Assembly: GCA_014896455.1 (NCBI GenBank)
Contig: JADBKJ010000006.1
Span: forward strand, 114,793 to 178,792
Direction: 5' to 3'
DNA from: Thermoanaerobacter sp.
Lineage (GTDB): Bacteria; Bacillota; Thermoanaerobacteria; Thermoanaerobacterales; Thermoanaerobacteraceae
Length of the DNA: 64,000 nucleotides
Notes under the pieces: model-generated
What the model was told of the DNA's origin: nothing
The model's database searches: none
Seen by the model: only the letters and a program-made list of their open reading frames with translations
Position numbers and translations under genes: made by a program
Part shown: one piece after another, positions 9,651 through 62,971 of the stretch
How positions within the stretch are numbered: the first letter of the stretch is position 1
How the letters are laid out: every line of letters begins with the position of its first letter

Positions 9651-9804
9651 ATGGCGGAGGCGGGTACCTTAAGGCATGGATGCCACCTGACGTAGGTACC
9701 CTGCCGGAACCTGAAGTGGAAGCTTATGTTTTGTCGCTTTGGAACATCGGAGCGACGATGCAAAATATCTCCTTTGAATATTTTTTAACTTTGTCAACAA
9801 ACTG
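9651..9804 (+). mobile_element. MITE copy A, left-truncated, IS1182-type right end
   Basis: Matches the right half of the 58653-58917 element; ends ...TGCAAAATATCTCCTTTGAATATTTTTTAACTTTGTCAACAAACTG; followed by hairpin ATGCC-ttcgt-GGCAT plus T run. Confidence 0.85.
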
Positions 9805-9901
9805 AATGCCTTCGTGGCATGTTTTTTTTGTGTACAATAGCATGTTATAATATGTGATATAATATAAAAAAAAGGGATTTAATAGGAGGAGCATTTTTAA
9901 A

Positions 9902-33547: not shown

Positions 33548-33831
33548 GGGGTAATAATATCAATAGCGGGTTAAAATTGAGCTACTTTTAATAATTTTAA
33601 ATTAAGTTGTTGATCTTTCCTAAATACTTCCATTGTCCTCAGTTGCATAAAAATAGTTTGTTACAAAAAACACAACCAATAAAAGTAGCAACTAATATCA
33701 ATATTACTTTTTCATAAGACATAACCTCACTTTCTTTTAAATTTTATACGTTTTTAGACTCTCCCACTGCTTATAACGCTACTTGCTGAAGAATACTACC
33801 CTGAAATCGAAAAATGCTGTCATAACATTTA

Positions 33832-34015
33832 AAATGCAAAAATTCAAAGGAAGCAAAAATAGAACTAAAAAGATGGATGCAGTTAACTAAAGAAAGCAAA
33901 ATTGTTGAATTTAAAAGATGTGTGCAAGTATTTAACCGGTGGTTTGAAGAAATAACAAATGCGAATGTTTCCTTACACTAATTCTGTAACAGAAGGCTAT
34001 AACAATAAAATTAAG
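33832..34015 (+). pseudogene. ISL3-family transposase C-terminal fragment
   Basis: KEAKIELKRWMQLTKESKIVEFKRCVQVFNRWFEEITNA, then after a frameshift FPYTNSVTEGYNNKIK (ISL3 S/TNG..EG.NNKIK motif). Confidence 0.75.
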
Positions 34016-34172
34016 GGAAGGTCTTAGGTTTATAACCAAAGACAAATTACTGTTTAATGTTATGACAGCATTTTTCGATTTCAGGGTAGGGTATTTTCAG
34101 CAAGTAGCGTTATGTCTACAGTGGGAGAGTCTAAACGTATAAAATTTAAAAAGAAAGTGAGGTTAGTGTCTT

Positions 34173-34364
34173 ATGAAAAAGAAAGTAATATTGATATTAG
34201 TTGCTACTTTATTGGTTGTGTTTTTTGTAACAAACTATTTTTATGCAACTGAGGGACAATGGAAGTATTTAGGAAAGAAAGATTATCAATTACTATATCG
34301 TATAGATAATGTACCGCTTGGGGGTAATAATATCAATAGCGGGTTAAAATTGAGCTACTTTTAA
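34173..34364 (+). pseudogene. Chimeric 63-aa ORF: secreted-protein N-terminus fused to the 67-bp repeat
   Basis: Signal-like MKKKVILILVATLLVVFFV; the last 14 aa are encoded by the repeat; a frameshifted copy lies on the - strand in the left inverted arm. Confidence 0.5.
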
Positions 34365-34478
34365 TAATTTTAAATTAAGTTGTTGATTTCAGGCAGCTAA
34401 GAAGCACATCTTAAGACTTTTATGTAAAAAGTTTTTGGGATGAACTCAGCATAAAAATTCTTTAAGGGGAGAAAGAAA

Positions 34479-52968: not shown

Positions 52969-53033
52969 CAAACAGAGGGGACGGTTCCTTCTGTTTGATT
53001 TTTTCAGATAAAAGGAACCGTCCCCCTTGTTTG
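52969..53033. repeat. 65-bp REP-like palindrome, copy 1
   Basis: CAAACAGAGGGGACGGTTCCTT...AAGGAACCGTCCCCCTTGTTTG; 64/65 identical to 57345-57409. Confidence 0.92.
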
Positions 53034-53072
53034 TTATGAAGTAAGAAAGTAAAAAGTAAATTGTTGTGTTAA

Positions 53073-53799: not shown

Positions 53800-55017
53800 A
53801 TGACTGAACATTCAACTAATGGAAAAATGCTCTATACCTACTATATTCGCCGTTATATTATTGCTGTATGCCTTGTAGAGTTTTTTGCTTTTAAAATTCT
53901 TGATCCTTACTATATTCAATTTATGACTACAGAAAAGGGACTCGGGTTAACACCTACCCAATTTGGATTTTTTGTATCACTTGCCTCAGCAGTGACCTCT
54001 GCTATCGATTACCTGTCTGGAGCTTTTGCAGACCGGCTGGGCCGTAGGCTCTCTTGGGGATTGGCAATGTTTTGCTATGGTGCAGGAATGTTATGGCTCA
54101 GCTCGATTTCTGCCTTTGGTCCTGCACTTGTTACTGCTGTATTAATGGGAATTTCTTATGCTTTTACGAGCGGTGCACGGGAAGCATGGCTCTATGATAG
54201 TGTTGGACAAGAAGGGACAAGGGAAGCTTTTGGTAAACTTTACCTTTACTCTATTCCATTTACTGCGATAGGAATGGTGGTTGCATATATTCTTGGAAGT
54301 CTTGGCAGCCTGCGTATTCCAATTGCTTTGACTGGCGTTATCATTATAGCCAATGGTTTTTTTATCATGACCTTTCCTGAGAACTATGGAAATTACCGTC
54401 GCCGAGGATGGTTGGAGATACTCAAAACGGGATTTTATCAGTTTTTAGAAAGTCGTGTTCTATGGATTACAGCAGTTCAGAGTTTTTTCTTTACACTTCC
54501 CATTTGGATCACAACTGCCTGGTGGATTACTTACATGGTGGAACAGTTTGGAGTTGACCTGAAAGGGACGGCATTTGCTTTTGGTGTTACTTCATTGGCT
54601 GCAGCAGTGACAGGTTTTTATATTTGCAAGATAAAAATCACCGATTACAGGAAACTAATTCTTTGGCCAACACTATTATCAGCGCTTGCCTTTTTATTAA
54701 TGCCGTTAGTTCCTGTGCCTTGGGCTTTTGTGGCCTTAGTTATTGTTGCGATTGCTTCCAGTTATTTGAGGGGGAGTGGTATTACCCTTTTAGAGAATGA
54801 ACAGATTAGTGTTGAACGGGCAACAGCATTATCCTTTTTGAATACTCTTCGTAGTGCTTTCTGGGCAGTAACTCCTCTCTTATGGGGGACTCTTATCTCA
54901 GTTTTGGGGCTTAAGGTCATGTTCTTTTTTGCAGGAGTAGCTTCGCTGATTTCTTTGTTTTTGTTAAAACTTGCGTTAGTGCTAAGACAAACGGTAAAAT
55001 GTCAAGGGGGTAATTAA
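53800..55017 (+). CDS. MFS transporter (12-TM, exporter-like); native C-terminus replaced
   Basis: DYLSGAFADRLGRR motif A, AFTSGAREAWLYD; the last residues (TVKCQGGN) are encoded by the 45-bp repeat. Confidence 0.88.
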   Translation: MTEHSTNGKMLYTYYIRRYIIAVCLVEFFAFKILDPYYIQFMTTEKGLGLTPTQFGFFVSLASAVTSAIDYLSGAFADRLGRRLSWGLAMFCYGAGMLWLSSISAFGPALVTAVLMGISYAFTSGAREAWLYDSVGQEGTREAFGKLYLYSIPFTAIGMVVAYILGSLGSLRIPIALTGVIIIANGFFIMTFPENYGNYRRRGWLEILKTGFYQFLESRVLWITAVQSFFFTLPIWITTAWWITYMVEQFGVDLKGTAFAFGVTSLAAAVTGFYICKIKITDYRKLILWPTLLSALAFLLMPLVPVPWAFVALVIVAIASSYLRGSGITLLENEQISVERATALSFLNTLRSAFWAVTPLLWGTLISVLGLKVMFFFAGVASLISLFLLKLALVLRQTVKCQGGN

Positions 55018-55036
55018 AAATTTTTTGAGACATTTA
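54992..55036 (+). repeat. 45-bp IS-end-like repeat, copy 1 (copy 2 at 58983-59027)
   Basis: CGGTAAAATGTCAAGGGGGTAATTAAAAATTTTTTGAGACATTTA; 43/45 identical. Confidence 0.8.
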
Positions 55037-55210
55037 AAGGGCAAAAAGGCAAAAAATACCCTTCTCCCAATATACTAATAAATGGTATTGAAAGTTCCAG
55101 AACAAGATTGTTTATTAATCTTTAACAAAAAAGTATTTAAATACTAACAACACCTTTTTATTGATATATTTGACCTTTGCTGAGCATTGCAAAGATCAGA
55201 GGGATTAGAC

Positions 55211-55261
55211 ATACTTGGCAAGAGCAGCTTCATTATTAAACCTTTTGATATCTCCAATTTC
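55211..55261 (-). mobile_element. IS110-family transposase scrap
   Basis: EIGDIKRFNNEAALAKY matches the IS110 EIGDI.RF.....L..YAG motif. Confidence 0.65.
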
Positions 55262-56138
55262 CCATATAAACACGGTGGCTTTTTATATTCTTCATAATTT
55301 CATCAGATAAACCCTCCATGTTATAGTCATGTTCTTCTATTATTTCTTTAATAAATAAATCTATTTTTATTGCATTTACTTACTTGCCATTTTACATAAT
55401 TATATCCTAAAAAATTGTAGTATAGCTTGTATTGGGTCATCATATGCTTGAATACAAATTGATTTTGCCGTAAAAATATCGTAATTAAATATTTTAGATA
55501 TTTCGTGTATTACTTTATTAATTTCAGTTTCAAATGCCGTGAATTTTCAATGCTGCGACTTGGTAACCCATTTTCTAAATGAATTATAAAAGCATGTTCC
55601 AATCTTAATTCAGGTCTAATTTGTACATATTTTTCTTCTGCAAATTTAGCCCATCCTTCTTTCGATTTTTTTCACGGACCAAGCTGCGGACAATATGATA
55701 ACGCATGCGAGTGATCATATTAGTATTTTTGAAGAAGGATGGGCTAAATTTGCAGAAGAAAAATATGTACAAATTAGACCTGAATTAAGATTGGAACATG
55801 CTTTTTATAATTCATTTAGAAAAATGGTTGTACTTGCTTTCGCAGCATTGAAAATTCACGCATTTGAAACTGAAATTAATAAAGTAATACACGAAATATC
55901 TAAAATATTTAATTACGATATTTTTACGGCAAAATCAATTTGTATTCAAGCATATGATGACCCAATACAAGCTATATCATACTTTTTAGGATATAATTAT
56001 GTAAAATGGCAAGTAAGTAAATGCAATAAAAAATAGATTTATTTATTAAAGAAATAATAGAAGAACATGACTATAACATGGAGGGTTTATCTTATGATGA
56101 AATTAGAAGAATATAAAAAAGCTACCGTGTTATATGGG
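55261..56138. repeat. Fold-back duplication: ~400-bp arms (55261-55661, 55732-56138), 70-bp spacer
   Basis: Left arm is the reverse complement of the right arm with scattered indels and substitutions (about 90% by eye). Confidence 0.92.
55695..56036 (+). pseudogene. C-terminal fragment of a DUF885-like (zincin) protein
   Basis: FEEGWAKFAE ... DPIQAISYFLGY resemble the DUF885 EGWA.YAE and P.QA.SY..G motifs. Confidence 0.5.
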
Positions 56139-57344: not shown

Positions 57345-57409
57345 CAAACAGAGGGGACGGTTCCTTCTGTCTGATTTTTTCAGATAAAAGGAACCGTCCC
57401 CCTTGTTTG
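57345..57409. repeat. 65-bp REP-like palindrome, copy 2
   Basis: 64/65 identical to 52969-53033, same orientation. Confidence 0.92.
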
Positions 57410-57685
57410 TGGACTTTTCCGGCAGTGTCTGCTAAGAGCATAGGGCATCCTGCCCCTTTTCGTGAAGAGTTGCCTTACAGATTAATACAGTTATATACAT
57501 TTAAGTCAGAGGTTGTATTGGACCCATTTTGCGGAAGTGGAACCACCTGTTTGGCTGCGTTGAAAAGCGGAAGGTATTATATCGGTTATGAGATAGAACC
57601 TAAATATGTTGAATTAGCAGAAAAAAGAATTAAGTCTTATTCAGAACAAATACATTTATTTGATGATTACCGCGCCTTAAAATGA
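57410..57685 (+). pseudogene. C-terminal fragment of an N4/N6 DNA methyltransferase (beta class)
   Basis: WTFPAVSAKSIGHPAPF..LPYRLIQLYT..VVLDPFCGSGTT..YIGYEI; catalytic N-terminal part missing, begins at the palindrome. Confidence 0.85.
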
Positions 57686-57692
57686 GGCGCTT

Positions 57693-58626
57693 CAGACTGT
57701 AGACAAAATATCGGGAACCCGTTATGATGAAAAGGGTTCCTTGTTTTTTTAGTATTATAGAAACATAAAAGGGAAACAAGATGTTATCAAAAACAGGATA
57801 CTTGAACATCAAATGAAATTTGCCAGCATAGATCAGTTAGTTCCAAAAGATCACCTTTTAAGGAAGATAGAAAGAGTCATAGACACCAGTTTCATATATG
57901 ATTTAGTAAAAGACAAATATTCCGAGATCACGGCAGACCAAAGTTGAAAAGGGTAGAAAACCGAAAGCAATAGCAGTAGATGCAGGCTATAAAAATCCCG
58001 TACATATTAAAGACAATATTTGATAGACAAATAATACCAGCAGTGCCATACACAAGGCCAAACAAAAGATGGTTTCATGAAAAAACATGAATTTGTTTAT
58101 GATGAATACTATGGCTATTTACATATACCCTGGGAGTAAATATTAACATATGTTCAGCCAACAGAGAAGGATATAGAGGGAATGCAAATCAAACCCAGAA
58201 ATGTAAAAACTGTCCTCTAAGAGGAAGAAGTGTGCCAAAGTAAAGACACACAAAGAGGATATTCAGGCACATATGGGAAGGATATGTAGAAGAAACAGAA
58301 CACCTAAGGCATACACCTTACTGTAAAAAAGTATATGAAAGAAGGAAAAGAGACAATAGAGAGAGTATTTGCAGATTTAAAAAGGAGAAGCATGGTTTGC
58401 GATGGACGACGTTAAGAGGGAAAGGAAAAATTGTCCAGCTACAAACGTGCTTGTTTTGCTGCCATGAATTTAAAGAAAATGGCCTTATAGTTATGGAAGG
58501 GCAAAGGGCCTTTGACATTTCAAACTTTATCCATTATTTGGAGTTTTAAAGAAAATTTTATCAGATATGCGCCCCTGCTTTCGGTACAGAAAACAGGGGC
58601 TTAGAATTTGCTTTGTCAACAAACTG
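57693..58626 (+). mobile_element. Degenerate IS1182-family element with internal deletion and frameshifts
   Basis: TIRs CAGACTGTAGACAAA / TTTGTCAACAAACTG; SIDQLVPKDHLLRKIERVIDTSFIYDLVKDKYSE; AVDAGYK; HLRHTPYCKKVYER, TIERVFAD; AAMNLKKMA. Confidence 0.9.
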
Positions 58627-58652
58627 AAATAAGCCGCTTTTATAGGGCTTAT

Positions 58653-58917
58653 CAGACTGTAGACAAACTTTCGCAAAGGAGATATTTTGCAATCGGTGCG
58701 ACTTGTTACAAAGCGGTAACAAAACTTAGCGAGACTGAGGGTGGAGGCAGGGCCGAAGCCATGGATGGCGAAGGCGGGCACCTGAGGCAAGGAGGCCGAT
58801 TGTGCCCGGTACCCTGCCGGAGCCCGAAGGTCGAGCTTTAGTTTTGTCGCTTTGGAACATCGGAGCGACGATGCAAAATATCTCCTTTGAATATTTTTTA
58901 ACTTTGTCAACAAACTG
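58653..58917 (+). mobile_element. MITE copy B (265 bp, complete) with IS1182-type TIRs
   Basis: Same TIRs as the adjacent IS; internal IR CAAAGGAGATATTTTGCA/TGCAAAATATCTCCTTTG; GC-rich structured core; no transposase. Confidence 0.92.
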
Positions 58918-59023
58918 CGAGAGTATTTCGTATACTCTCTTTTATTATTGTATATTTTGTGATAGAATTAACTTAAACATACCGGTAAAATGTTAAGGGG
59001 ATAATTAAAAATTTTTTGAGACA

Positions 59024-59257
59024 TTTAGCGGAATAAAAAACTTTATCTGGAATATTGTCAATGCCCTTATGGACGTTGCAGTAGTTGTCGCAGTAGGCTT
59101 TATTGTATAGAAGGGATACAAGATAATAGCAAATTTCACCAACACGGCAGGACGTTCCGAATCAATGACAGGGTTATTGTGGGCTATCCTTGGAGCTATT
59201 GTTGTGCTTGGCGCAAAAAGATTTGTCGGAGTTGCGCTTGGATTCGAGCCGCAGTAA
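59024..59257 (+). pseudogene. VirB2/TrbC-like conjugative pilin remnant
   Basis: FSGIKNFIWNIVNALMDVAVVVAVGFIV*KGYKII...GRSESMTGLLWAILGAIVVLGAKRFVG: two hydrophobic helices with a basic loop; TAG at 59108; 5' part lost at the 45-bp repeat. Confidence 0.55.
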
Positions 59258-59344
59258 TAAAGAGTTTACTTTGTTGGGACTATCTTTAGTGATAGTCCTA
59301 ATTTTTTTATTTTAAAAGCAGAATTTATTTTTGCAAATATAGAA

Positions 59345-59389
59345 TTTTGCCATCAAATAGTGGCAAAAATAAATCTGATATGATATAAT
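59345..59389 (+). promoter_or_regulatory. TA operon promoter with a palindromic operator
   Basis: TTTTGCCA-N8-TGGCAAAA; right arm overlaps the -35 (TGGCAA 59361-66); 17 bp; TGnTATAAT (59384-89). Confidence 0.7.
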
Positions 59390-59438
59390 AGATTCAGAAA
59401 AAATAAATCTGCTGCTCTAAAGAAAGAAGGCGATCAAG

Positions 59439-59798
59439 ATTGAGGAATTAAAAAAACAACTTATTAAAAGTTATTTGCTAGCAATAAAAAAGCTTGTAGC
59501 AGACAATAAATGGACTTTTATTCCAAGGAGAAAAAATATAGAATTTTTAAGAAAATGGGGATTGCTTGTAGATGATGTTAAAGACATAATTTTAACTTTG
59601 GAACCTTCGGATTATATAAAAGGACCAGAAAAGGATCATGATAAAGACAAAGAAGGTGACGTATGGATTTTTAAAAATCAGAAGTATTTAGATGCTTGCA
59701 TATACATAAAATTAAGATATAATTCACCGAATGAAGTGGTGTGTATTTCTATCCATGAAGATGAACCTCTAGAAGGGTGTGATGAAAATGGTGAATAA
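59439..59798 (+). CDS. MqsR-like type II toxin; start uncertain (ATT 59439 or TTG 59475)
   Basis: IPRRKNIEFL..GL....VKDIILTLEPSDY.KGP..D.D...GDVWIF..IYIKL....VVCISIH; overlaps the antitoxin start. Confidence 0.78.
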   Translation: MEELKKQLIKSYLLAIKKLVADNKWTFIPRRKNIEFLRKWGLLVDDVKDIILTLEPSDYIKGPEKDHDKDKEGDVWIFKNQKYLDACIYIKLRYNSPNEVVCISIHEDEPLEGCDENGE

Positions 59799-60798
59799 AA
59801 TATATTGCCCAGTATGCAAACAAGAAGTTGGATTTAAAATAAAGAAAAGTTTAATAAAAGAATATAAAGGTGTGCAAGTTAATGTTGAGGAAAATATTCC
59901 TTACTGCAGCAAATGTGGTACTGAACTGTTTGTTCCAGAAATAGAAAATGACAATTTAAAAAGACTTTACAGACGTTATGGAGAACTCACGGGTTTAATT
60001 ACCCCAGAAGATATTGCAAAAATAAGAAAGAAATATAATCTTTCTCAAAGAGAATTGGGCCAGATTCTCGGTTGGGGCAAAATGACAATTAACAGATATG
60101 AAAGAGGAGCGTTGCCTTCAGTTTCACATAGCGACATTCTAAAGTTGATTTCAAAATCGAAAGATTTTTTAATCGAAAAAGCTGAAGAAGCACTAAGAGA
60201 GGGAAGAATATCTGAGAAAACATATCAAAAAATACAAAAAACAGATAAACCTCATATTACAGATTTAAGAAGAAAAGTTATTGAAACGGAATTGAATCAA
60301 ACGGAGAGTGTTTTTAATGGCTTTAAAAGATTTGATTTTGAAAAATTGGAAAATTTGATAAGTTATATTGCAGATAAGGTCGATAATCTATATTTAAGCA
60401 GTTTAAATAAATATCTTTGGTATATTGATTTTTTACACTTTAAACGTCACTTATATTCAGTTACAGGGTTAAGCTATATCAAATACGCTTTTGGCCCAGT
60501 TATTAAAGGTTTTGTATTTAATGAAATAGCTGCTTATCCTAGTAATAAGTATTATGTTGAAGAGTATGAGATGGAGGATGGAGCAATTCAGACAAAATTT
60601 AAAAGCAAAAAGAACTACCATCTTACAATATTTACCACAGACGAATTACAAACTATAGATACTGTAATAAATGCACTAAAAGACAAAACATGCAAAGCAA
60701 TTTCTGAGTTATCTCATAATGAAACTGGTTGGCAGCAAACTCCATATTCTGAATTAATTTCATACGAATACGCAGAACAATTAAAACTCTTTAATTAA
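59782..60798 (+). CDS. Antitoxin: MqsA-like Zn finger + HTH fused to a Panacea/SocA (DUF4065) domain
   Basis: CPVC...CSKCG; IRKKYNLSQRELGQILGWGKMTINRYERG; LNKYLWYIDF.HF....SVTGLSY...FGPV; LSHNETGW. Confidence 0.85.
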   Translation: MKMVNKIYCPVCKQEVGFKIKKSLIKEYKGVQVNVEENIPYCSKCGTELFVPEIENDNLKRLYRRYGELTGLITPEDIAKIRKKYNLSQRELGQILGWGKMTINRYERGALPSVSHSDILKLISKSKDFLIEKAEEALREGRISEKTYQKIQKTDKPHITDLRRKVIETELNQTESVFNGFKRFDFEKLENLISYIADKVDNLYLSSLNKYLWYIDFLHFKRHLYSVTGLSYIKYAFGPVIKGFVFNEIAAYPSNKYYVEEYEMEDGAIQTKFKSKKNYHLTIFTTDELQTIDTVINALKDKTCKAISELSHNETGWQQTPYSELISYEYAEQLKLFN

Positions 60799-60821
60799 AA
60801 ATTGAAAATAAGGTACTTTTG

Positions 60822-60853
60822 AGAAACTGTTTTTGCAACAGTTTCTTTTTTTT
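60822..60853 (+). terminator. Terminator after the TA operon
   Basis: AGAAACTGTT-tttgc-AACAGTTTCT plus T run. Confidence 0.8.
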
Positions 60854-60879
60854 GTAACAAATTAGGGAGGTGTTTTTTT

Positions 60880-61652
60880 ATGAAACAAAAAAAGAGCAAA
60901 TATGAAAACATAAATTTAGAAGGACAAGAAAAGAAGACTTCTTTAATTTTAAACAACAGAGAAAAAGATTTTTTGGATGAAATAGAAGACGGGATTAAAC
61001 CATTAGTTAAAGCTTGTATAGATAAGTATATTGACACTTATTCCTCATGTGAAGGACATATTTATGACACAAGGGAAGAACATTCACCCCAGATAACAAT
61101 TGTAATTGAAAAAAAGACATAGAGCAGTGGAGTGCATATGTTGATGCTCTCAAAACCAAACACAATATTTATTTGAATCCGCAAGTTTTTAATGCAATTG
61201 ATTTTTCAATAATGAACAAATTTTACCTGGAACCTATTTATTACAAAATTTACTTTTCAAACAAAGATAAAGAAAAATCCATCCCATTGTTAACTGAATC
61301 AATTTTAAATAATGAATTTCCTCAATATCAGAATCCTGTTTTACAGTATCTTCAGAAAGAAAATATTAAAGTAGAATATATAGATAATGCAGAACTTATA
61401 GGCAGTATTGTAATTAATACTTCAGAACCTCATAAGTGGAAATATTTTACAAGATGTGTTAATGAACAGGGGGAAATAATAAAAATTGAAGATGTAGCTC
61501 AAGGGGTTAAAATAACCTTTTTATCTCAAAATTATTTTGCTTATAAAAAGTTCTACAACGCTCTTTTAAGAAAATTTTATCTGGTAAACCCAAAGGTTAA
61601 ACACTTTTCTGTTCTTTGTTCTTTGCAAGTATTGCTGCGTATTTACTGGTAA
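60880..61652 (+). pseudogene. Hypothetical protein with DTYSSCEGH motif, split by a frameshift in an A7 run (61109-61115)
   Basis: Adding one A joins the 80-aa and 159-aa ORFs through EKK-DIEQWSAYVDALKTKHNIYL-NPQV. Confidence 0.65.
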
Positions 61653-62018
61653 CAGTCTGGCTGGGCTGGGTTCTTTTAAACATACTGCACATGAAGGGAT
61701 TGATTTATTTTAAGCTGTTGGTTTGAGAGCAGGTGGCGGCTTATGCTGAAAAAATACAAAAGAGATGATGTGCCAGGCATTGGATATGCTACAGTGCTCA
61801 AAAAGAAGTTAGTTCGGCAGTATGGAACATGTAAAAACAGAAAACCAGGGGAAAAATAACAACTGTTAGAACGTAACGACTGTTATTTTCCCGGTTTTTA
61901 TTTGCTAGGACTACTGTAATCCTAACAATTTTAAATTTTAAAGTGAGTATTATAGTTGCTTTTTCACGGAAAAGTAGTATACTAATAAGTAGATAAATAA
62001 ATCTACGAGGTGGTTAAT

Positions 62019-62270
62019 ATGATAAACAAAACTACAACTATAAGGGTAGATATTGAAACATATAATGGCATAAAAAGACTTTCGGAACAACTTAACCAGT
62101 CAATGAATAAGACAATTCAAGAAGCTATTTTCGAGTACAAAAAGAAAATTTTACTTTCAAAAACCGCTGAAGCTTTTGCTGCTCTTAAAGAAAACAGCAA
62201 ATTGTGGCAGGAAGAGATCGAAGAAAGGCAAATATGGGAAAATACACTGTGGGATGGAGTTAAAGAATGA
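62019..62270 (+). CDS. Ribbon-helix-helix-like antitoxin (MazE partner)
   Basis: TTTIRVDIETYNGIKRLSEQLNQSMNKTIQEAI; acidic tail WQEEIEERQIWE; ATGA overlap with the toxin. Confidence 0.8.
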   Translation: MINKTTTIRVDIETYNGIKRLSEQLNQSMNKTIQEAIFEYKKKILLSKTAEAFAALKENSKLWQEEIEERQIWENTLWDGVKE

Positions 62271-62608
62271 ACCCAAAAAGAGGAGAAATATGGCTTGTTA
62301 ATCTAAATCCGACAAGGGGTCATGAGCAAAGTGGTATTCGCCCTGCTGTGGTAATTTCGGTTGACGAATTTAATTCGTGTCCTGCTGATCTGGTAGTTGT
62401 TGTTCCGGTTACCAGCAAAAACAAAAATATACCATTACACGTAGAAATACAGCCTCATAACAGTGAACTTGCAAAAGTGTCATTTGCAAAACCGGAAGAC
62501 ATACGCTCAATTTCTAAAGAAAGACTTGTAAAAAGAGTAGGAGAAATGCCAAAAGAAAAATTACAGGAATTAGAAGAAAAAATAAAAATTTTGCTTGGAT
62601 TACAATAG
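62267..62608 (+). CDS. mazF: PemK/MazF-family endoribonuclease toxin
   Basis: KRGEIWLVNLNPTRGHEQSGIRPAVVIS, VVVPVTS, EDIRSISKERL. Confidence 0.93.
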   Translation: MNPKRGEIWLVNLNPTRGHEQSGIRPAVVISVDEFNSCPADLVVVVPVTSKNKNIPLHVEIQPHNSELAKVSFAKPEDIRSISKERLVKRVGEMPKEKLQELEEKIKILLGLQ

Positions 62609-62625
62609 CTCCAAATTGTACGTCT

Positions 62626-62887
62626 CAGTTTGTTGGCAAAGTTAAAAAACATTCAAAGGAGATATTTTGCATCGTCGCTCCGATGTTCCAAAGCGACAAA
62701 ACTAAACTCGACTTTCAGGTTCCGGCAGGGTACCCCGTCAGGCGACGTCCTGTCTCAGGTGCCCGCCTCCGCCCTCCTTGGCTTCGGCCCTGCCTCCACC
62801 CTCAGTCTCGCTAAGTTTTGTTACCGCTTTGTCACAAGTCGCTCCGATTGCAAAATATCTCCTTTACGAAAGTTTGTCTACAGTCTG
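62626..62887 (-). mobile_element. MITE copy C (262 bp, complete), opposite orientation to copy B
   Basis: CAGTTTGTTGGCAAA...TTTGTCTACAGTCTG; followed by hairpin GCAGGCT-aata-AGCCTGT plus T run. Confidence 0.92.
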
Positions 62888-62971
62888 CGGCAGGCTAATA
62901 AGCCTGTCTTTTTTTATCGACATAATTAATAGAAAAACATTTTTAAATAACCAAAAACGGAGGGGATTTTT

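Follow-up and report, generated by a model that had tools for sequence, protein, structure and literature searches.

One important question raised by this locus is whether a short, strongly folding repeat with two GGA-loop hairpins at its centre acts for its host as a CsrA-binding element, or whether the hairpins are cargo of a mobile element. The sequence analysed (hereafter the window) is a stretch of 64,000 nucleotides (C30:114793-178792) in a draft genome of Thermoanaerobacter sp. (2.22 Mb, 33 contigs, 90% complete). A previous sequence-only reading of the window had described three copies of a MITE with IS1182-type ends, and had proposed that the element is under structural selection and could, when co-transcribed, work as a dispersed CsrA-binding site. 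The three copies (named A, B and C) were found where that reading had placed them (Table 1), and no further MITE copies were detected in the 64-kb window.

Table 1. Coordinates of the MITE copies, their parts and the adjacent features in the window
Feature	Position	Strand	Remarks
MITE copy A	9651..9804	+	5'-truncated, 3' 153 nt only (positions 113-265 of the element); 85.7% identical to B
Partner IS1182-family remnant	57693..58626	+	934 bp; both ends kept, ~612 bp deleted, frame broken by stops
Local hairpin ATAAGCC...GGCTTAT	58627..58652	.	Between the IS remnant and copy B; target type these elements use
MITE copy B	58653..58917	+	Full length, 265 nt; youngest subfamily (core haplotype common to 24 copies)
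Left TIR CAGACTGTAGACAAA	58653..58667	+	Identical to left end of IS1182-family element
Promoter-like TAGACA-17-TATTTT	58660..58688	+	Inside left end, pointing inward on the GGA strand; consensus match only
Stretch aligned to the whole Rfam RF01731 (TwoAYGGAY) model	58702..58861	+	26.7 bits (gathering score 43), E 0.04
GC-rich core, predicted three-way junction	58746..58818	+	Closed by GGCAGGG/CCCTGCC
Hairpin 1, GCC-AUGGAU-GGC	58758..58769	+	GAA/GAA on its flanks (tandem G.A)
Hairpin 2, GGC-AAGGAG-GCC	58786..58797	+	Flanks CUGA/GAUU; within helix CGGGCAC/GUGCCCG
Right TIR TTTGTCAACAAACTG	58903..58917	+	Identical to right end of the IS
Terminator-like hairpin GAGAGTATTTCGTATACTCTC + T run	58919..58939	+	Immediately 3' of copy B
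MITE copy C	62626..62887	- (inverted)	91.7% identical to B; alternative lower helix
Terminator-like hairpin + T run	62888..62915	+	Beyond copy C

As had been noticed from the letters, the 15-nt ends of the MITE coincide exactly with both ends of the neighbouring IS1182-family remnant, and nested arms of ~75 bp surround the GGCAGGG...CCCTGCC core. All the hairpins quoted for the three copies were correct: in addition to those of copy B, copy C has the core haplotype GCC-AAGGAG-GGC / GAC-AGGAC-GTC, and copy A keeps hairpin 2 in the form GGC-AUGGAU-GCC. When the whole element was folded, one long imperfect hairpin was obtained, with -123.4 kcal/mol for the + strand (z -9.6) and -108.1 kcal/mol for the - strand (z -9.8). 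No transposase gene is present within the 265 nt, and the only long frame, located on the - strand, is a 128-aa read-through of the palindrome. The promoter-like TAGACA-17-TATTTT occupies the position of a TTGACA-17-TATGAT in the IS. Copy A sits, in GGA sense, between an RsmE-type methyltransferase gene and the terminator of that gene (9805-9830), and its other neighbour is a MiaB/MtaB-type radical SAM enzyme gene; these gene types match the rsmE and mtaB named previously. The transcript of a MazF-like gene (62267-62608) would run through copy C in the UCC (antisense) sense.

BLAST of copy B against the genome, one of the checks that had been suggested, revealed 75 full-length copies and ~35 partial ones. 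About 20 copies match B at every position of the full length and 24 share one identical core haplotype, with identities to B of 76-99% in the remaining copies. An intact partner IS of 1,566 bp, whose ends are the same as those of the MITE, was found in sister genomes in 5-8 or more copies. Its transposase (491 aa) matches NF033551 (IS1182 family) with 497.6 bits (cut-off 270), and the broken frames of the remnant in the window keep a DDE_Tnp_1_6 fragment (24.9 bits). This establishes the repeat as a non-autonomous MITE with IS1182-family ends, as had been suspected. It is present in 10/10 sampled genomes of the genus (BLAST), and an exact-pattern scan located it in Thermoanaerobacter sp. A7A, T. 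thermocopriae JCM 7501 and one Clostridia MAG. In this 33-contig, 90%-complete draft, the search for an intact partner IS gave no more than the remnant and an unrelated DUF772 fragment. Hence, current mobility in this strain is judged from the identical copies and from the empty sites in its relatives. Without a transposase of its own, the MITE would be moved in trans by the transposase of the 1,566-bp IS with the same ends.

The sites of insertion were analysed next to both kinds of element. Clean direct duplications flank 36/73 MITE copies. They are 16-30 bp long, in most cases 21-26 bp, and each of them is a palindrome made of an A-tract, a stem-loop and a T-tract, such as AAAGGAACAGGAAAACCTGTTCTTTT. 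Intact IS copies showed the same pattern (22-28 bp). A clean duplication is absent at the other 37/73 copies. Copy B is one of those without a simple duplication; its right flank is a carried-along hairpin region, named 'X' (58918-58983), the first part of which is the hairpin GAGAGTATTTCGTATACTCTC. Both a simple duplication and a cryptic end were tried for the 'X' flank, and neither of them fits. Empty sites with a single hairpin were reconstructed, and 8/8 of them were contiguous in sister genomes (94-100% identity) and split in this genome. At the level of genome comparison, these empty sites show recent mobility and duplication of the entire stem-loop. Gene 3' ends are favoured, with 23 copies between convergent gene pairs and 3 between divergent ones (p 9e-5), and the median distance from the left-hand neighbouring gene is 36 nt.

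Both IS and MITE thus insert at the foot of hairpins that resemble intrinsic terminators, near the 3' ends of genes, and duplicate the hairpin in full (16-30 bp). According to the mechanism that we propose, the points of strand transfer would be the two feet of the stem. Only an extruded or single-stranded target brings these feet next to each other, and attack on a hairpin in one of these two states is therefore the probable route. As a result of the duplication, the terminator of the upstream gene is preserved and a hairpin stands on either side of the insert. Survival of the upstream terminator would make the insertions nearly harmless, and this may be how the element could come to occupy ~1% of the genome. 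To our knowledge, little has been established about the mechanism of the IS1182 family, for which ISfinder gives duplication lengths of 0-60 bp. IS1272, which also belongs to this family, has been reported to target inverted repeats (PMC5678879). The element studied here resembles IS1272 and the IS1182-like element of Thermoanaerobacter kivui (PMC5678879; bioRxiv 10.1101/2024.09.20.614114) in its transposase family (NF033551), in the targeting of inverted repeats or stem-loops with long, variable duplications, and in the co-mobilisation of neighbouring DNA from one end. However, IS1272 is reported to replace the target repeat without duplication (PMC5678879), whereas here the whole hairpin is duplicated.

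The duplicated terminators bear directly on the claim that the copies act when co-transcribed with host genes. That claim did not hold as a general rule: a clean insertion has a terminator hairpin on each side, as can still be seen at about half of the copies, and co-transcription is consequently not the default.

In order to identify the core, the window was compared with Rfam motifs, as the previous reading had recommended. No match on the element was obtained at gathering thresholds, and TwoAYGGAY (RF01731) surfaced only in a permissive scan. With a cut-off of 43 bits, copy B scored 26.7 bits and its single-copy relatives in a sister genus 35-42.7, so that the gathering threshold was reached by none of them; among 20 diverse relatives, the Rfam model lists only one (39.4 bits). 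Two hairpins with AYGGAY-type loops are nevertheless placed on a multistem junction, with loop sequences A[U/A/C]GGA[U/G] and A[A/G/U/-]GGA[G/U/C], and the long closing P1 stem is accompanied by tandem G.A (GAA/GAA at hairpin 1, UGA/GAAU at hairpin 2). Sequence and pairing predict a three-way junction at the centre of the module, which bears two hairpins with A(N)GGA(Y) loops as well as tandem G.A. The module is a relative of TwoAYGGAY, albeit a sub-threshold one.

TwoAYGGAY was described by Weinberg et al. 2010 with a very long P1 stem, and the published alignment includes several Psychromonas copies with shared flanks from one genome (PMC2864571). The element shares with that motif the three-way junction, the long outer stem, the two hairpins with AYGGAY loops and the tandem G.A, together with the occurrence in Clostridia and, as in Psychromonas, the presence in a single genome of multiple copies whose flanks are shared; copy B and its relatives align over the full model. 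It differs in scoring below the gathering score, in its 3-bp hairpin stems interrupted by G.A internal loops, in some loops with a final G (AAGGAG) or with five nucleotides (AGGAC), and in being demonstrably the cargo of an IS1182-type MITE. This last property of a TwoAYGGAY relative explains both the long outer stem of the motif and its multi-copy occurrence.

The same core was found on other elements. Within this genome, it is present in a second MITE with the same IS ends and different arms, and in two elements that lack the IS ends and have the ends GCTGACATTTTGCAC instead. It was also seen behind GCTGRCATTTTG-type ends and, in other families, in multiple copies behind different ends, for example an inverted repeat CTGGCGCATCCCCAGTTTTG with 9-10 bp duplications. 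Altogether, the core stands on at least three kinds of element ends. Conversely, a version of the MITE without the core is located at C13:167488, and a sister MITE family with GAAA/CGAAG loops (GCGAAAGC/GCGAAGC) in place of the GGA loops is also multi-copy. In the sister genus, the module is single-copy, with genes for an S41 peptidase and a glycerate kinase on its two sides. The possibility of one syntenic 'ancestral sRNA gene' at that locus was considered and rejected, because both orientations occur there among species.

To define the distribution of the core, a covariance model (R1) was built from 26 sequences and searched against 401 genomes of 277 genera of the phylum. Matches were obtained in 74/401 genomes and 56/277 genera, mostly with several copies each. 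The interior of the MITE does not come from the IS, and this distribution suggests that a palindromic module of ~200 nt, older than the MITE and widespread, was captured by the IS ends. Taken as a whole, the feature is very probably a non-autonomous MITE of a hairpin-targeting IS1182-family IS that carries such a captured, TwoAYGGAY-related module.

The conservation of the module was then assessed. In the alignment of 26 sequences, 96% of the cells are paired and 12/26 pairs carry a change in both partners, a value that was not attained in any of 500 shuffles; slid controls gave 1-4 such pairs. Among 28 diverse matches, pair 42-63 occurs as AU (11), CG (9), GC (6) and UA (1). The GGA is present in both loops in 26-28 of these 28 matches, as A-N-G-G-A-Y in the same proportion, and the variation in the loops falls on the N positions of A(N)GGA. 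The UGA/GAAU around hairpin 2, the GA/GA around hairpin 1 and the junction GAA are nearly fixed. The compensatory change from GGC/GCC to GAC/GTC noticed between copies B and C is real, with GTC/GAC and G.U intermediates also present genome-wide, and the pairing of the core with fixed GGA in both loops is maintained through many compensatory changes across the copies and ~25 genera.

The idea that the MITE is under structural selection was upheld in part. Pairing and loops are conserved and, within the genome, rare variants are depleted in the core (16/125 on 28% of the sites, p 1e-4). However, the conservation belongs to a much older module, and the depletion among the copies of this genome was not significant at the GGA sites alone, so that the evidence for selection on individual copies is only mild. 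We conclude that covariation and fixed GGA reflect conservation of the module across many genera and several mobile ends, and are not evidence of selection by the host on each copy.

Of the 720 pairing cells, 680 are Watson-Crick, 9 are G.U and 14 are A.C, and among single copies G.U occurs at 28 sites and A.C at 25. G.U pairs are thus no commoner than A.C. RNAs under selection on one strand do not usually behave in this way, and the pattern suggests that complementarity is maintained on both strands or in the DNA itself. The three-way junction might accordingly be used as folded single-stranded or cruciform DNA, possibly as the recognition site of the module's own putative mobility or replication machinery, with the GGA loops as protein contacts on DNA. 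Integron attC sites and the forked hairpin of the CTX phage are recognised as folded DNA. Almost purely Watson-Crick pairing is what DNA complementarity predicts, the element works in either orientation, and the transposase of the partner IS already targets hairpin DNA; moreover, the GCGAAAGC/GCGAAGC of the sister family are reportedly ultra-stable DNA mini-hairpins (Hirao et al.). On the other hand, the core stands on unrelated kinds of ends, at least three, and recognition by one single transposase is therefore excluded; the neighbouring genes showed none that is conserved; tandem G.A and GGA or GNRA loops are classic RNA motifs; and the core-less MITE at C13 indicates that the core is not needed for IS1182-type mobility. 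We regard a function of the junction as folded DNA as unlikely.

Pairing required on both strands would also explain Watson-Crick-only covariation if the element worked as a generic RNA hairpin. In that case, the ~75-bp helix in read-through transcripts of either strand would be a barrier to 3' exonucleases or a substrate of RNase III, as reported for REP, ERIC and Correia elements, and the loops would be kept for folding only. The very stable folds of both strands (-123 and -108 kcal/mol, z about -9.7) and the location at gene 3' ends are consistent with this role. It leaves unexplained the near-invariant GGA, UGA/GAAU and junction GAA across ~25 genera, and read-through is limited by the duplicated terminators. 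For these reasons, a purely generic hairpin is considered quite unlikely.

The remaining specific reading is that of a dispersed CsrA decoy. A transcript of the GGA strand, arising by read-through or from the promoter-like site of the left end, would offer two A(N)GGA hairpins to one CsrA dimer, and ~75 copies would jointly titrate CsrA, or host transcripts would meet a different fate. The CsrA/RsmE site is reported to be CANGGANG (Schubert et al. 2007), and both loops fit it, with GGA in the loop, a short GC stem and variation at the N positions. As the previous reading had advised, the genome was searched for csrA and fliW, and both were found side by side (csrA C33:16841-16987, fliW C33:16462-16824). 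In the genome set of the phylum, csrA is present in 70/74 genomes with the element and in 194/327 of the others (OR 12, p 2.5e-10), and at the level of genera in 53/56 versus 138/221 (p 5.5e-7). The promoter-like TAGACA-17-TATTTT in the left end, the terminator-like hairpin past the right end and the position of copy A within a 3' UTR in GGA sense also agree with a CsrA-binding transcript. For motifs of this class, the idea had already been published: TwoAYGGAY and Bacillaceae-1 were proposed as CsrA-binding sRNAs on the basis of RMfam CsrA-site prediction (Gardner and Eldai 2015, PMC4333381), and the publication of the same proposal for TwoAYGGAY speaks in its favour.

Several results, however, weaken the CsrA reading. 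FliW is equally enriched (69/74 versus 192/327) and Spo0A also gives an OR of 4, which ties the csrA association to the flagellar module or to lifestyle, and partly to phylogeny. The orientation of the copies relative to neighbouring genes is unbiased (23 same and 22 opposite here, 13 versus 7 in other genera), and the single copy of the sister genus can face either way at the same syntenic locus. There is no excess of G.U over A.C (9 versus 14). Clean insertions are insulated by duplicated terminators, and the duplication is still visible at 36/73 copies. Sister MITE families lack the promoter-like site, no conserved internal promoter was seen in these families or in other genera, and the sister family with GNRA loops spreads equally well. 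Capture of CsrA by a GGA-strand transcript is the leading specific idea for the function of the module, and we consider it possible rather than probable.

The element was also compared with the sequestering sRNAs CsrB and RsmY/Z. In common with them, it has GGA in the loops of short GC-rich hairpins, its paired sites would suit a CsrA dimer, and csrA is present in the genome. Unlike them, the element has two sites per unit in ~75 dispersed mobile units, instead of one or two regulated genes, and the known antagonist of CsrA in Firmicutes is FliW, whose gene is present here. We know of no CsrA antagonist in Firmicutes other than this protein. In the most elaborate form of the CsrA reading, each copy would be a self-contained mobile sRNA gene, with a promoter in the left IS end, the duplicated hairpin as terminator and a core that traps a CsrA dimer; we judge this form very unlikely. 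The probability that is left after CsrA capture, a DNA-level structure and a generic hairpin falls to another binding partner or to the absence of any function.

Short bacterial MITEs and repeats with conserved folded transcripts include bcr1 (Bacillus cereus group), Correia/NEMIS, ERIC, RUP and REP. Like these, the element is short and intergenic, occurs in many copies at the ends of genes, folds strongly and could affect transcripts. It is distinguished from them by a three-way-junction module that is common to several genera and transposon ends, and by the duplication of its hairpin target. MITEs, IS1182 elements, TwoAYGGAY and the CsrA hypothesis were each already known. In the searchable literature, nothing specific was found on MITEs of Thermoanaerobacter, nor any description of a MITE derived from an IS1182-type element with a foreign core, nor the link between a TwoAYGGAY-class module as cargo of several mobile ends, its amplification as an IS1182-type MITE of ~75 copies and the duplication of whole terminators. 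For bioRxiv 10.64898/2026.09.22.753630, term counts gave TwoAYGGAY 52 times and no mention of CsrA, MITE, transposon or insertion sequence.

The results have consequences for the motif, for the transposon family and for CsrA. TwoAYGGAY has been an orphan RNA motif since 2010, and a relative of it is now recognised as mobile-element cargo on at least three kinds of ends, spread through about one fifth of the genomes sampled in the phylum. For the IS1182 family, the filled and empty sites provide unusually clean comparative evidence on target choice, namely terminator hairpins that are duplicated whole. The sister strains with filled and empty sites also mean that the genus offers natural test material for RNA antagonists of CsrA in Firmicutes. 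If the CsrA reading were true, the MITE would be a transposon-borne, dispersed CsrA sponge in a Firmicute and, should each copy be a mobile sRNA gene, transposition bursts would change the availability of CsrA. More broadly, the TwoAYGGAY class would then be a domesticated or selfish 'CsrA-bait' module taken up by several transposon families.

A stretch of about 118 nt, here called X, was found beside the youngest subfamily of the MITE, the one that includes copy B. Members of this subfamily adjoined pieces of X in every case, and X was never observed without a neighbouring MITE in this genome. The hairpin GAGAGTATTTCGTATACTCTC is contained within X. At 13 loci the MITE was followed by the right part of X, the cut points of which varied, and the local hairpin was not duplicated. 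At six or more loci, nucleotides 1-50 of the MITE were followed by the left part of X and then by a full MITE, with a duplication bracketing the whole array. X seems to be donor-flank DNA that was carried along from a fixed end of the MITE. This carry-over resembles the one-ended mobilisation reported beside an IS1182-like gene in T. kivui (bioRxiv 10.1101/2024.09.20.614114). The DNA that lies past the X flank of copy B (window 58983-59038) is 88% identical to window 54992-55047, the 3' end region of an MFS gene (53800-55017), which suggests a local duplication or rearrangement adjoining the MITE.

Each arm of the MITE carries one TCGG[T/A]GCGAC motif (e.g. window 58693-58702 and 58870-58880). 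The two motifs are direct rather than inverted and therefore form a conserved mismatch within the long hairpin. The motif was also seen at loci L076-L089, and in other genera it takes the form GGAGCGAGCGA. In the composite elements it is always this motif that marks the end of the MITE fragment. A multi-copy sister MITE family has the IS ends and arms of the main MITE and retains the three-way junction, with both GGA loops replaced: hairpin 1 is GCGAAAGC or GCGAAGC, and hairpin 2 is GCC-CGAA-GGC. The single-copy TwoAYGGAY-like element in the sister genus lies between a gene for a CtpB-like S41 peptidase and a glycerate kinase gene; both orientations were found among the species, and in one of them (L026) hairpin 2 has been lost.

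Features of the MITE, its relatives and the surrounding window
Feature	Position or loci	Strand	Description
128-aa open frame	window 58527-58913	-	spans the whole copy B palindrome
X pieces	window 58918-58983; contigs C30:36204-36600 and C33:49563-49915; 19 more pieces		
Sister MITE family	loci L032-L039		genomes G003, G006, G012
TwoAYGGAY-like element	loci L021-L026		single-copy; sister genus g2
MqsR-like toxin + MqsA-HTH-Panacea fusion	window 59475-60798		
86-aa ORF	window 62010-62270		just upstream of PemK/MazF toxin gene
PemK/MazF toxin gene	window 62267-62608		
Nested near-perfect palindromic region	window 55261-56138		arms of 128, 74, 69 and 50 nt around 55700
Nested near-perfect palindromic region	window 33548-34387		67-nt direct repeats (33548, 34321) flanking arms of 25-56 nt
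66-nt hairpin repeat pair (CAAACAGAGGGGACGGTTCC...)	window 52969-53034, 57345-57410		98% identical

Copies B (+) and C (-) (together window 58653-62887) are mutually inverted and separated by 3.7 kb containing two toxin-antitoxin modules, one made up of the MqsR-like toxin and the MqsA-HTH-Panacea fusion, the other of the 86-aa ORF and the PemK/MazF toxin gene. The layout is similar to that of a composite transposon; no matching flank duplication was seen around this segment. Comparison of the 86-aa ORF with Pfam gave no significant match.

Other repeats were also present in the window. The two nested palindromic regions are both large and bear no relation to the MITE. The 66-nt hairpin repeats, which are in direct orientation with 4.4 kb between them and have a diverged copy at window 39045, constitute a separate repeat family.

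The open frame running through copy B is most likely spurious, but at many copies of the MITE gene callers may annotate such a frame as coding for a hypothetical protein.
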